A stretch of 63,869 bases of DNA, counting the filler, from Acidimicrobiia bacterium (GTDB lineage Bacteria > Actinomycetota > Acidimicrobiia > Spongiisociales > CAZKJJ01), in assembly GCA_046759765.1 (NCBI GenBank). It is 5 parts of 5 records of this genome, joined end to end, with 100 filler letters (N's around TTAATTAATTAA, not from the genome) between each part and the next. Parts side by side here need not be neighbours in the genome. Positions count along the whole stretch, not along the records: positions 51,788 to 63,869 come from JBHICV010000064.1; 4 more parts are not named here. The stretch is one strand, 5' to 3'. The first letter of the stretch is position 1. The number at the start of each line of letters is the position of its first letter. Positions 58,501-61,500 of this stretch are shown here, piece after piece. The position numbers are program-made.

Positions 58501-61500
58501 CGCGCGTGATCAGGACGCCGGAGTTGCCCTATCGAGACAGAGCCCGCCGACTTGGAGCCCCTTAGCGTGAGCTCTTCCGCCCAGCTGGAGATCGGGGAGT
58601 CGGTCGTAGCCATCGGATATGACCTGACCGAGCAGGCCCCGACGTCGATCGGCGGCCCTCTCGTCGCCCTGGAAGCAGAGGTGATTGCCGTTGGTCGGAC
58701 CCTGCAGACTGGCGAGGCGGAGCCCGGAAGGCTGCTCGAGATCGACGCGGTCATCATCGGGGTCATCGTGGACTCGGCCGGAAAGGCGCTGGGAATCACC
58801 GTTGGGTGGTCTAGCGACACCAGCGTCGTTCTGTCGATGGACCGAGCGGCTCGGCTGCTGGACTTTGCCCAGGCTTCATCCGACGGTCTGGTCGAGATGC
58901 GACCGTATGAGTGTCGGTCCTTTGCCAATTGCCCAACGGACCTGCTCGAGATCGACAGAGTCATCTATGGCCCGCGCTGCTCGGGCGTAAAGCCCGAGCT
59001 GGTGGAGCAGCCGTACGCAGTTGGAGCACCCGGGCTCGGCTACAAGGAGGCCTGGACCATCCAGGGAGCCAGCCCTGCGGTGGTCGTTGCCCTAAGAGCA
59101 CCCTTTGGCAGCGGTTGCTCCTGGGGGGTCTCCGCATCGGGCTGGCAGGCAGCCTTCGCCTTTAGTCAATCTGATCCCCAGTTGGCCCTGGAGCGGGCAT
59201 GGGCGGAGTGCGAGGCGCTCGAGAACCCGGATCCAGATCAGGACTGCTCGCTGGGCCGCGCGGTGCGCTGTGACATGCCGGACGGAGCTACGGAGTGGGC
59301 GGGCCTGACGACGACACTATTGGGTTCACCTACTTTCCGGAGGAGGTAATTGAGATCAACGACCAGGTAGGCACCGGAGCCGGGCCGCCCTGGCGGGCAG
59401 ACCCATTGGCCACTGCGATCGAGTACTGGTCGGATAGGTCGTCAGAGTGCGTGGAGGATTTCGGCTCCGAGCATCGCTGCCGACTTGGATTGAAGCTGGT
59501 CTCAAGCGACGACGGGGTAGCAATAATCGAAGGGCTACTTCAGTTCTCCTGGTTCCACGATGAGGACTTCCCGGGGGAAATACGGGGCGAGCACTACGAG
59601 AGTCGTGCGCCTCGAACGGTAGTGGTACAGCTCATTCCGGGCGGTCCGAGCTGGTGGGTGGTGGAAGAGTGGTGGCTCCAGGAGGAAGAGACCGATGATG
59701 GGGTGGATGAGGCCGGTCGCCGCCAATCGGACCGCATCTGGCAGCAGTACCCGACCGTCGTCTTCGACAACGGCGTCTGAGCAAGGCATCCAACTAGCCG
59801 CCGTGCTACAACCTCTCCTGCCATGACCTCCGAGCAAGAAGAGTGGAACGAGCATTACCGCATCAGCGACCATCCCATCGTCCTGGAGATCGAACGTCGC
59901 GTTCACGGGACCGACTACGGGATCAACAGCTTCACCACTCGTGACCAGGCGGAGGAACTGGTCGAGAAACTTGGCTTGACACCGGAGAAACGGCTGCTCG
60001 ATCTTGGTTCCGGCTCCGGCTGGCCGGGCCTTTACCTCGCCAAACAGTCCGGGTGCGCGGTGGTTCTGTGCGACCTCCCGGTGACCGGGATGGATCGAGC
60101 TCGACGCCGGGCGCTAAGAGATGGCATAGCCGACCAGTGCCAGTTCGTAGTGGGCTCCGGCGACAAGCTTCCGTTCCGCTCGGGCACTTTCGACGCCGTC
60201 ACGCATGCCGACGTGCTCTGTTGACTGTCAGAAAAGCTCTCCGTGCTGAGAGCCTGCCGGCGGGTCCTCCGAGAAGGTGGACGGCTCGGATTCCAGGTCA
60301 TCCACGTCGCCGCCGGCCTCAGCGCGCGTGACTACCAGCTTGCGGTCGTCTCTGGCCCGGACCACGTAGGAGCGGAGGCCGGGTATCCCGAACTGCTCGA
60401 TTCAGCGGGCTTCGAAGTGGAAGAAGTAGCCGATGTGACCGATGAGTACCGACGGATCCTCGCCGCGCGGATGGAGCACAGCGAGCCTTTCTTAAACGAG
60501 CTCCGCTCCATCTACGGCACTGATGTCTTCAACGAGAGGTGGGCCGCGCGAGCCAAGGCCATCGAAGCAACACAGGCGGGCTTGCTGAAGCGTGCCTCGG
60601 TGTTTGCGACGCGGCCTGAAGATGAGGGCGCGATTTAGGAGTCGGCCGACTAGCCGGCGGCCAGATTCGTGAGCAACTCAGCCGAGTTGTCTATGGCCAG
60701 GATGTTGCCGAACGGGTCGATAAACCATGCTGTCTTGACTTGGCCCTGCGTTGCTACGCCGTTCACTGTTTTGAGACCTATCTCTGGGATGTCGTACTCC
60801 TCGAACTTGACCCCCTTCCGCCGGAGTTGCTTGACCGTGCCCTCAACATCCTCGACGCCGAACGCGCAAACGGTGCCCGTCGAGCCTGCGGGCGTGGGCC
60901 GTTCGTAGACATATAGGTAGGTGCTGTGTCCGCATTTGTAGGCCATGCCCGGCTCCTCGTCGGCGAGCTGACCCAGCTCCTCAAATCCCAGCGTTTCGCC
61001 ATAGAACTCCCTGGCGCGTTTCAGATCGGTGACCACGAGCGTTGCGGTCGCCAACGCGTCCCGCAGGCTCATCTTTCGCTCCTTCTCTTGGACTCGGGTA
61101 TCTCGTCGAGGACGTACGTGACGATCTCGTCCAGGCTCATGGCCTGTCCCTCGGCGAGCAGTGCTTCCGCCTGATTGAAGCCGAGAGCGTCGAGAGCATC
61201 ATCCAGGCCGGGTAGGTCGCGGCGAGGGACCTCGGCCAGGCCGGCCCCACTTGTCTCCCGCAACCGGTTGGCGGCGCCCAGAAGCCGAACCGCTCGCTCT
61301 TCCTGGCCATCCTGCAAAGCAAGAGTCGTGAACAGATCGACGTGGAAGAGGACTCCAGTGATATCTCCAACTTCAGCGAAGAGCTGTATCCCTTCCTCCA
61401 GGAGCGGGCGGGCCACCTCGGGTCGTCCGTCGCTGACCTCTACGTTGCCCAACATGTATGAGGCCCACGCGCTGTGGAACGGCTCATCGAGCTCCTGAAA

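Follow-up and report, generated by a model that had tools for sequence, protein, structure and literature searches.

A gene for a 271-residue class I SAM-dependent methyltransferase with an adjacent Cys133-Sec134 pair was identified in an Acidimicrobiia genome of the order Spongiisociales. It is very probably a functional selenoprotein gene, in which SelB and tRNA-Sec would read an in-frame UGA under the direction of a hairpin 11 nt downstream. Taken as a whole, a selenocysteine gene whose product engages its substrate through the Cys-Sec pair is probably the best explanation of the data. The window, i.e. the whole stretch of DNA that was analysed, comprises 63,869 nucleotides; the features are collected in Table 1.

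Table 1. Positions of the predicted selenoprotein gene and its elements, counted along the window.
Feature	Position	Strand	Basis or detail
Predicted selenoprotein gene, 271-aa class I SAM-dependent methyltransferase	59823..60638	+	ATG 59823, TAG 60636-60638
SAM-binding motif I LDLGSGSGWPG, residues 59-69	59997..60029	+	alignment A1, AlphaFold2 model
Codons D130-V-L-C133	60210..60221	+	loop after strand beta-4 (DSSP of model)
UGA codon, predicted selenocysteine U134	60222..60224	+	column conservation, two further runs
Predicted bacterial SECIS hairpin	60236..60253	+	folding, pairing in 25 sequences, frozen codons; absent from 4 Cys-form orthologs
Hairpin stem (GCUCUC/GAGAGC)	60236-60241/60248-60253	+	
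Apical loop (CGUGCU)	60242-60247	+	

The reading frame, its UGA and the hairpin

Translated with TGA as U, the gene yields 271 aa with a sole internal TGA at U134, directly 3' of the Cys133 codon in the motif HADVLCULSEKLSVLRAC. Under translation table 11 the same stretch is read as two ORFs in one frame (59823-60224 and 60243-60638), which bears out the first-pass annotation of a single methyltransferase cut in two by the gene caller. Homologs align across residues 6-268, and the AlphaFold2 model has a mean pLDDT of 94.4 over its full length, the part after the TGA included, with a pTM of 0.91. The post-TGA residues G232 and R257 are invariant in alignment A1. The protein is a class I SAM methyltransferase by its Pfam scores (Methyltransf_11: 66.9 bits against a cut-off of 21.2, E 2.6e-18; Methyltransf_25: 59.9 bits against 27), its GxGxG motif and its Rossmann-like fold. 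G62, G64, G66, W67 and P68 of motif I are invariant together with D84, and residues 57-76 form a strand-loop-helix in the model.

An order-wide search returned 43 matches in 400 other Spongiisociales genomes, 39 of them with at least one TGA, 3 without a stop and 1 with a TAG only, exactly the split counted previously. The U134 column was checked in 30 of 44 matches, namely those with loci returned, the other 14 being left out. It is TGA in 26 of these orthologous loci, which are 38-49% identical to the query, and TGC (Cys) in 4; the pattern first seen as 8 U and 2 Cys thus persists in the larger set. Among wider loci the column is Cys in 69 of 80 and Sec in 11. An identical TGA and hairpin recur in contigs assembled separately from another two runs of the same study. 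TGA still serves as a stop codon in the lineage, since at least 17 of the 30 orthologs end with it. A conserved in-frame UGA with Cys in homologs, the hallmark asked of bacterial selenoproteins, was found. Judged from these alignments, the conserved TGA is under purifying selection.

The hairpin starts 11 nt past the UGA and overlaps codons K138-A144. Folded as a 24-nt segment it reaches -8.8 kcal/mol (z = -3.54), and none of 200 shuffles folds as well; folds of the 54 nt and of the 41 nt that follow the UGA are unremarkable against shuffles (z = -0.03 and -1.38). Across 25 distinct Sec-form sequences, the 150 pair cells of the stem are 97.3% paired. G-C forms the outermost pair in 22 of these sequences, wobble changes occur in 2 and a compensatory change in 1. 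The hairpin hardly varies and therefore shows almost no covariation (25 of 500 shuffles score at least as high). It had been reported as invariant in 8 of 8 orthologs; the form GCUCUC-CGUG[CU]U-GAGAGC is indeed conserved, but with more sequences it is nearly, not strictly, invariant.

The codons beneath the hairpin are frozen (AAG 25/25, CTC 24/24, TCC 25/25, GTG 25/25, AGA 22/23). Mean codon entropy is 0.35 bits for the 7 hairpin codons versus 1.36 bits for 45 other conserved codons. AGA at Arg143 accounts for the 22 of 23 just given; at four other conserved Arg columns it is used in 1 of 96 cases. Going by these codons, selection on the hairpin operates at the RNA level. The 4 Cys-form orthologs have neither the hairpin nor the peptide KLSVLRA.

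The bacterial SECIS consensus comprises a loop of 3-9 nt, an upper stem of 4-16 bp, a G within the first two positions of the loop, a UGA-to-loop distance of 16-37 nt and a minimum free energy of at most -7.5 kcal/mol (PMC13188914). The present hairpin falls within these ranges, with a loop of 6 nt whose positions 2 and 3 are G and U, a stem of 6 bp, a UGA-to-loop spacing of 17 nt and the folding energy given above. An Rfam scan of 59700-60750 at E<=10 found no SECIS family; a flavi_FSE match (14.9 bits, E 1.5) was dismissed as due to chance.

Genes for the selenocysteine machinery are present, with selB at 338 bits, selA at 416 bits and selD at 390 bits, all three over their cut-offs. The selD gene is a Sec-containing form, with an in-frame TGA and hairpin of its own. 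No tRNA-Sec was found in the assembly (92% complete, 308 contigs) by Rfam, ARAGORN or blastn with the tRNA-Sec of relatives. ARAGORN called 46 tRNAs, none of them SeC. The Rfam candidates proved to be tRNA-Leu and tRNA-Ser, the best one (46.6 bits) being a tRNA-Leu, and a 'tRNA-???' call on contig C145 was spurious. Among related genomes, tRNA-Sec scored above the cut-off in 4 of 5, and ARAGORN called all three of the relatives' tRNA-Sec genes submitted to it tRNA-SeC with anticodon tca.

The active-site column and the spread of the family

All 29 aligned sequences share D130 and C133. In the model these two residues lie in the loop between a strand (residues 123-129) and a helix (138-148), and besides the pair the family has no other conserved Cys except a frequent Cys146. 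The nearest solved relatives by profile are Arabidopsis PMT2 (5wp5, E 5e-26) and MitM (8zc8, E 1e-25), and the top fold matches of the model are AtmM, RebM, TleD, MitM and PMTs (TM 0.72-0.78, identity 15-27%). U134 aligns with His in both 5wp5 and 8zc8. This bears out the earlier placement of the selenocysteine at the active-site His for these two structures, and the common D-x-I-L-H motif suggests its equivalence to PfPMT His132. The Tyr19/His132 pair of the Plasmodium enzyme is described as catalytic in PMC6705855 and PMC13669648, and PDB entries are on record for the H132A and Y19F PMT mutants. Sequence alignment supports the view that the Cys-Sec pair fills the column of the PMT-type active-site His. 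In PMTs and MitM the active-site His at that position lies between the SAM and substrate sites; Cys133-Sec134 of the model occupies the corresponding post-beta-4 loop.

The PMTs (AtPMT2 5wp5, PfPMT 3uj6/3uj7), MitM, RebM and AtmM share with the present family a Rossmann core, a helical lid and an Asp four residues ahead of the catalytic column. They differ at the column itself, where their Leu/Ile-His gives way to Cys-Sec in the query. The Tyr-His chemistry described for PMTs therefore cannot operate as such, and the protein, with Sec or Cys in place of the His of the catalytic dyad, falls outside the PMTs.

A profile built from 29 sequences detected 218 database proteins at E<=1e-30. Among the best 150 of these, the motif is C-C in 90, C-W in 1 and C-H in 2, and 23 proteins end exactly at DV[LIM]C. 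This agrees with the earlier observation that database homologs are either Cys-Cys or end at the unread TGA. One such truncated half was deposited as a 'class I SAM-dependent methyltransferase'. Of the motif-spanning proteins among the best 150, 90 of 94 have Cys at the 134 column and all 94 keep C133. Since gene callers halve these genes (23 halves among the best 150 of 218), the Sec forms are missing from annotation and from counts of the Acidimicrobiia selenoproteome.

Cys-Cys is the majority state in the wider family (Proteobacteria, Nitrospirota, Actinomycetota), whose representatives belong to several phyla of bacteria from soils, sediments and the sea. Cys forms also occur in cultured strains, a Mesorhizobium sp. 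(L107) and a Rhodobacteraceae bacterium (L124). In a quick tree the Sec forms are clustered in Actinomycetota. A clade sister to the family is Cys-His, with D130 invariant there too. The family probably began as Cys-Cys; within Actinomycetota the second Cys was probably exchanged for Sec, with reversion to Cys on at least two occasions. The family passed no NCBIfam cut-off. Database cluster names of its members are generic only, and an ESM Atlas search with a natural Cys homolog returned only generic methyltransferase names.

Possible role of the Cys-Sec pair

The product is very probably a small-molecule methyltransferase. It is tentatively proposed that the thiolate/selenolate pair is the substrate-engaging element and holds a soft electrophilic or chalcogen substrate near the SAM methyl group. 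Sulfide, persulfide or selenide species, bound as a mixed S-S or Se-S adduct, are candidate substrates, as are metalloids, for instance As(III). The advantage of Sec would be its greater nucleophilicity at neutral pH. Once the methyl group has been transferred, formation of a vicinal selenenylsulfide with the adjacent Cys could release the product, and cellular reductants would return the pair to its reduced state.

The genomic surroundings give few leads. No conserved neighbour was found among 14 ORFs of the window, 112 ORFs at 20 loci of the order and 119 flanks at 63 wider loci, as had been noted before on fewer loci, and synteny is shared only by three Cys-form loci (L052-L054). Recurrent ars, mer or sel neighbours were likewise absent across the 20 order and 63 wider loci. 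At 5 of the 63 wider loci, Cys forms have a persulfide dioxygenase-rhodanese fusion, DsrC or DsrE as a neighbour, a count made without a control. All sequencing runs containing the gene's DNA are labelled hydrothermal vent metagenome and belong to one study; no RNA runs are among those listed. The sulfur-related neighbours and the vent label are weak substrate leads.

The enzyme could instead be an ordinary N-, O- or C-methyltransferase that uses Cys or Sec134 in place of His as catalytic base or nucleophile, with Cys133 structural only; in a variant, a transient Se-methyl-Sec would pass the methyl group to the acceptor. This is rather unlikely, although several features point to it: both the sister clade and every one of the nearest solved enzymes have His at position 134, and the invariant D130 corresponds to the Asp of the PMT D-x-x-x-H motif. 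Two conserved basic residues, R243 and R257, are found in the modelled C-terminal lid helices and may resemble the phosphate-binding residues listed for PfPMT (PMC6705855). Against it, C133 is as invariant as position 134 (29/29 aligned sequences; 94/94 of the motif-spanning proteins among the best 150), which argues that the pair works as a unit. Moreover, a selenolate is a poor general base, and we know of no methyl relay through Sec.

An adjacent Cys-Sec is a known redox-active arrangement, and the eight-membered selenenylsulfide ring it can form is that of the Gly-Cys-Sec-Gly end of mammalian thioredoxin reductase. The pair might accordingly be a redox switch that toggles the methyltransferase under oxidative or sulfide stress through such a ring, with no substrate contact. 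Such a role would be in keeping with an ECF sigma factor gene in the same orientation 1.8 kb upstream and with a zf-HC2 anti-sigma domain adjoining one Cys form (L139), and most catalogued selenoproteins are redox proteins (PMC13188914). A switch is nevertheless improbable: the pair occupies the catalytic column and no peripheral site, replacement of a catalytic His is not what one would expect of a switch, and the regulatory neighbours occur at 2 loci only.

That the gene is no selenoprotein gene at all, its TGA having arisen in a decaying gene by nonsense mutation or through an error of assembly, or being reassigned genome-wide, e.g. to Trp, can be dismissed as very improbable: the split by gene callers, the missing tRNA-Sec and a Trp at the U134 column of one database homolog (P0072) would fit, but 26 of 30 orthologs have the TGA in one and the same column, the sequence beyond it is conserved, contigs from two other runs show it unchanged, the hairpin is frozen at synonymous sites in TGA forms only, selA, selB and selD are present, and the at least 17 of 30 orthologs that stop at TGA contradict reassignment.

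A bolder proposal is offered as a long shot. The Cys-Cys and Cys-Sec methyltransferases may represent an unrecognised, widespread methylation route for reactive sulfur and selenium species or metalloids, unrelated to ArsM, MddA/H/M and Tpm. Sec would capture the substrate as a persulfide, perselenide or metalloid thiolate, SAM would methylate it, and Cys would expel the product via the selenenylsulfide. To our knowledge, such a covalent cycle of capture, methylation and release is undescribed for any SAM methyltransferase.

Where an enzyme contains Sec, that residue is the one critical to its chemistry. In this large and unstudied methyltransferase family it singles out the Cys-Cys/Cys-Sec pair as the working site, and the pair offers a concrete handle for a substrate search. 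Redox enzymes make up nearly all of the selenoproteins known, and a SAM methyltransferase other than the ArsM type with Sec in its catalytic column would also widen the uses of this amino acid.

Comparison with known methyltransferases and selenoproteins

The best NCBIfam model is the DVU_1556 family (NF045667), for which the earlier score of 66 bits was reproduced (66.2 bits against a cut-off of 155). The same model ranks first for the query, the Cys forms and the Cys-His sister clade alike, but the query and its relatives (four scored) reach only 56-85 bits and thus fall outside the family. A literature search on DVU_1556 found no paper.

One methyltransferase from a past survey is presumably of the ArsM type. 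It was called a homolog of a bacterial selenoprotein (Lobanov 2007). Chaudhuri & Yeates 2005 mention a methyltransferase selenoprotein solely as an entry in a listing of BLAST hits. The present family is absent from the 119 families of the 2026 selenoprotein catalogue. The word 'methyltransferase' does not occur in the deep-Sep paper or the Actinomarina preprint, nor in the main text of BSepDB and one of its supplements, a file that may be incomplete or a different table.

The characterised thiol methyltransferases MddH and MddM1/2 are described without a Cys pair in PMC11445057 and PMC12904073, so a Cys-Sec pair would, on those descriptions, be unnecessary merely for thiol methylation. As possible relatives of the query, MddM1 (210 aa), MddM2 (204 aa) and MddH would be set apart by this feature.

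ArsM (NF008823) is, like the query, a class I SAM methyltransferase with Sec and Cys forms. In Sec-containing ArsM the Sec lies in the substrate site (PMC13188914), which sets a precedent for a Sec that binds a soft substrate. The query is nonetheless not an ArsM. It scores 39.9, 34.2, 39.4 and 40.6 bits against NF008823, NF041536, NF041537 and NF047649 (the last three being fusion forms), with cut-offs of 263, 575, 510 and 460, and the match of solved ArsM to the query profile is marginal (E 5e-6). The UxxG motif of ArsM is missing; the C-U-L-S motif of the query is placed in another loop, the one that follows strand beta-4 directly. MduS (NF045649, PF13649), listed in the 2026 catalogue, is a methyltransferase-domain selenoprotein too, but has two Sec, a CxxU motif and a 338-position model, as opposed to one Sec, CU and 271 aa. 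The query scores 23.6 bits against its cut-off of 380, with the SAM-binding half alone matching, and is not a MduS. An adjacent Cys-Sec pair as in the query is also found in the organometal CU-motif selenoproteins SaoL (MerB-like), HgcA, SaoC and MbdU and at the end of thioredoxin reductase; these have unrelated folds and reactions, and none is a SAM methyltransferase.

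The recoded gene and its SECIS hairpin

The methyltransferase gene reads as one frame when its sole internal TGA, immediately 3' of a Cys codon, is translated as Sec (U134, in the context HADVLC-U-LSEKLSVLRAC). With table 11 it breaks up into two ORFs in the same frame, 133 and 131 codons long. The encoded protein belongs to the class I SAM methyltransferases, scoring 66.9 bits with Methyltransf_11 (cut-off 21.2). In NCBIfam 20.0 no model reached its cut-off, and the top model was the DVU_1556 family (66.2 bits against 155). The gene's DNA was found in sequencing runs of a single study, which are labelled hydrothermal vent metagenome. 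Separately assembled contigs of two further runs from this study have an identical TGA and hairpin; the sole difference is T>A at window position 60122 (GAT to GAA, D100E), a population variant within the gene.

Locations of the features discussed; positions with no prefix count along the window
Feature	Location	Strand	Remark
ECF-type sigma factor (Sigma70_r4_2), then three overlapping ORFs	57553-59780	+	ORFs without Pfam match
The three overlapping ORFs	58013-58570, 58552-59349, 59295-59780	+	No Pfam match
Cys-Sec methyltransferase gene	59823-60638	+	271 residues, one frame with TGA = U, stop TAG
In-frame TGA (U134)	60222-60224	+
Hairpin GCUCUC-CGUGCU-GAGAGC	60236-60253	+	Begins 11 nt past UGA
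Cyclase fused to NACHT/STAND ATPase and TPR repeats	61069-63744	-
selD, source genome	C108:6375-7298 (L015)	-	Outside the window; own in-frame TGA, SHGAG-U-ACKLGP
selA, source genome	C220:27-1199		At contig end
selB, source genome	C155:151-1932		At contig end
tRNA-Sec matches (Rfam), related genome G118	C1:2193852-2193943 (L146), C1:2182998-2183089
Adenylate/guanylate cyclase genes at other loci	L050:9314-10534, L055:2118-3845, L063:8859-10265, L122:1924-2796
Metallo-beta-lactamase-rhodanese fusions, proteobacterial	L095:1-954, L101:3-953, L105:1820-2779		Directly adjoin Cys-form methyltransferases

In isolation the hairpin folds at -8.8 kcal/mol (z = -3.54), and 0 of 200 shuffles were equal or better. 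It agrees with all four criteria of the bacterial SECIS model as set out in section 5 and the Fig. 2 legend of PMC13188914: the loop has 6 nt, the upper stem 6 bp, G then U occupy loop positions 2-3, and the UGA lies 17 nt from the loop. Among 25 distinct Sec-form sequences (family members with TGA in the U134 column) stem pairing is kept in 97.3% of pair cells. The stem changes are a G-U wobble in two sequences and a compensatory change from U-A to G-C in one (L045). Covariation is weak, its observed score being reached by 25 of 500 shuffles, because the hairpin hardly varies.

The freeze of synonymous sites is a stronger argument for a recoding signal than covariation. Hairpin codons are fixed: K138 is AAG (25/25), L139 CTC (24/24), S140 TCC (25/25) and V141 GTG (25/25). 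R143 is AGA in 22 of 23 sequences, and AGA occurs once in 96 across four other conserved Arg columns. Codon entropy averages 0.35 bits across the 7 hairpin codons; for 45 conserved codons elsewhere the mean is 1.36 bits. The four Cys-form orthologs (Cys codon in the same column) have no hairpin and their peptide has drifted to KHAALGES, KQAVLRDN, KQLVLKAS and KLEVLAEC. It is therefore the RNA, rather than the protein, that keeps KLSVLRA conserved.

Near-copies were seen in some wider Cys forms. Three of them, from Acidiferrobacterales and Nitrospira MAGs (L085, L088, L102; about 1390-1420 in each locus), carry AAGCGCUC[GC]GUGUUGA[GC]AGC, with the peptide KRSVL[RT]AC, and a Dehalococcoidia Cys form (P0022) still has KLSVLRAC. 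Such sequences may have been left over from Sec-to-Cys conversion or from transfer.

Orthologs, wider family and Sec decoding

Repeating the search in 400 further genomes of the order (E<=1e-20) exactly reproduced the count in the first-pass annotation: 43 matches, 39 with at least one TGA, 3 without a stop and 1 with TAG only. With the source genome counted in, 30 of 44 matches were checked at column level, the other 14 lying outside this check. The U134 column is TGA in 26 of the 30 and TGC in four (L024, L025, L026, L041); L022 and L023 are identical in sequence. At least 17 of 30 orthologs terminate in TGA, so it is an ordinary stop codon in this lineage. In an alignment of 29 sequences, 38-49% identical to the query, E24, G33, G62, G64, G66, W67, P68, D84, G89, P117 and D130 are invariant, as are C133, U134, L135, K138, L142, G232 and R257. 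Invariant residues thus stand on both sides of the TGA, which argues that the reading frame is selected along its full length.

A profile of these 29 sequences, searched against 1.84 billion proteins, matched 218 representatives at E<=1e-30. Among the best 150 of the 218, 94 cover the motif (90 C-C, 1 C-W, 2 C-H, 1 more printing as C-C), 23 stop exactly at ...DV[LIM]C and 33 are partial or unclassified. The 23 are gene halves cut at the unread TGA. Source names of family members are generic; one half, a deposited 139-aa entry from an Acidimicrobiia MAG, is called 'class I SAM-dependent methyltransferase'. The database homolog P0072 (DVLCWLTRKLSVLREC) has Trp in the Sec column, seemingly a TGA translated as Trp by the gene caller, and four 115-aa members of its cluster resemble C-terminal halves.

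Of the best 80 loci in one-genome-per-species contigs, 69 are Cys forms and 11 are Sec forms. Cys forms occur in Alpha-, Beta- and Gammaproteobacteria, Nitrospirota and Actinomycetota, and in single MAGs labelled Verrucomicrobiota and Bacteroidota. The same hairpin recurs in all 11 Sec forms, of which ten bear the label Actinomycetota and one (L138) Kiloniellales; the contig of L138 has the same length (24,039) as one from a genome of the order. Some near-identical proteins bear clashing labels (L085 Acidiferrobacterales and L088 Nitrospira; L124, a Rhodobacteraceae isolate, and L143, a 'Flavobacteriaceae' MAG). Mis-binning of contigs or recent transfer is the probable reason for these clashes and for the Kiloniellales Sec form. 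In a quick maximum-likelihood tree of 99 sequences (midpoint root for drawing only), 27 of 28 Sec forms fall in a single Actinomycetota clade of 36 sequences (SH-aLRT 98), within which two Cys groups are nested. The tree requires at least three to four state changes, and its topology would fit one gain of Sec followed by reversions to Cys.

The source assembly (2.73 Mb, 308 contigs, 92% complete) contains selB (338 bits), selA (416 bits) and selD (390 bits), all above cut-off. Its selD is itself a selenoprotein gene, with a 6-bp hairpin (AGCUCG/CGAGCU) 7 nt past the UGA; the loop opens with GU, comparable to methyltransferase loop positions 2-3. No tRNA-Sec was found in this assembly by Rfam search, ARAGORN (46 tRNAs, 0 SeC) or blastn with the tRNA-Sec of relatives. 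The top Rfam candidates were tRNA-Leu and tRNA-Ser. Four of five related genomes have a match above the Rfam cut-off, and for three of those sequences ARAGORN reports tRNA-SeC with anticodon tca. Since selA and selB both sit at contig ends, the gene may fall in an assembly gap; we read its absence as assembly incompleteness, and the gap remains. The nearly closed related genome G118 has two matches above cut-off (75.4 and 71.7 bits, ~10.8 kb apart), which may represent a duplicated selC.

Position of the Cys-Sec pair and possible chemistry

In an AlphaFold2 model (mean pLDDT 94.4, pTM 0.91), C133-U134 is in the loop that joins strand 123-129 to helix 138-148. The closest folds (TM 0.72-0.78) are AtmM, a putative sarcosine/dimethylglycine methyltransferase, RebM, TleD, MitM and phosphoethanolamine methyltransferases (PMTs); the closest solved structures by profile are Arabidopsis AtPMT2 (5e-26) and MitM (1e-25). 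In the alignments the residue opposite U134 is His both in AtPMT2 ('DTILHI') and in MitM ('ESIIHM'); D130 aligns with the Asp that precedes the AtPMT2 His by four residues. A more distant sister clade has Cys-His or Asn-His in the C133-U134 columns. Excerpts of PMC6705855 place a catalytic dyad of Tyr19 and His132 between the SAM site and the substrate site of Plasmodium PfPMT, and excerpts of PMC13669648 give both residues as essential. By the shared motif rather than a printed alignment, we infer that U134 may be the equivalent of His132.

The mechanism that we tentatively prefer is capture on the pair: the thiolate/selenolate would hold a soft sulfur, selenium or metalloid substrate beside the SAM methyl group, and the neighbouring Cys would then aid product release via a vicinal selenenylsulfide. 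It seems unlikely that Sec merely stands in for His as catalytic base or nucleophile on an ordinary substrate, and a redox switch formed by the pair is doubtful. An artefactual TGA or a pseudogene is scarcely credible.

Gene context and known selenoprotein families

The ECF sigma factor gene and the three ORFs share the strand of the methyltransferase gene and end 43 nt before it; all five may form one transcription unit. On the opposite strand, 3' of the methyltransferase, are a glyoxalase-fold gene and the cyclase-STAND-TPR gene. Cyclase genes also lie within a few kb at four other loci, which may merely reflect their abundance in these genomes. No neighbour is common to 20 order loci (5-kb flanks). 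Among 63 Cys-form loci, counted without a control, the methyltransferase gene adjoins a Lactamase_B-rhodanese fusion (persulfide-dioxygenase-like) at three, DsrC at one (L067) and DsrE at one (L121), a weak lead to the substrate. Gene context gives no help with function.

The literature search returned no description of a Cys-Sec methyltransferase family, some selenoprotein-survey lists and supplements being beyond its reach. Table 1 of a 2026 review (PMC13188914), with 119 prokaryotic selenoprotein families and subfamilies, lists no class I methyltransferase that has a C-U motif. Its methyltransferase entries are ArsM (UxxG), MGMT, MduS (CxxU, two Sec), a UXPK-star fusion and two ArsM fusions. 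Existing NCBIfam models of methyltransferase selenoproteins score the query at 24-41 bits, against cut-offs of 380-575. The Cys-Sec methyltransferases are a genuine, uncatalogued selenoprotein family of a general kind that is already known.
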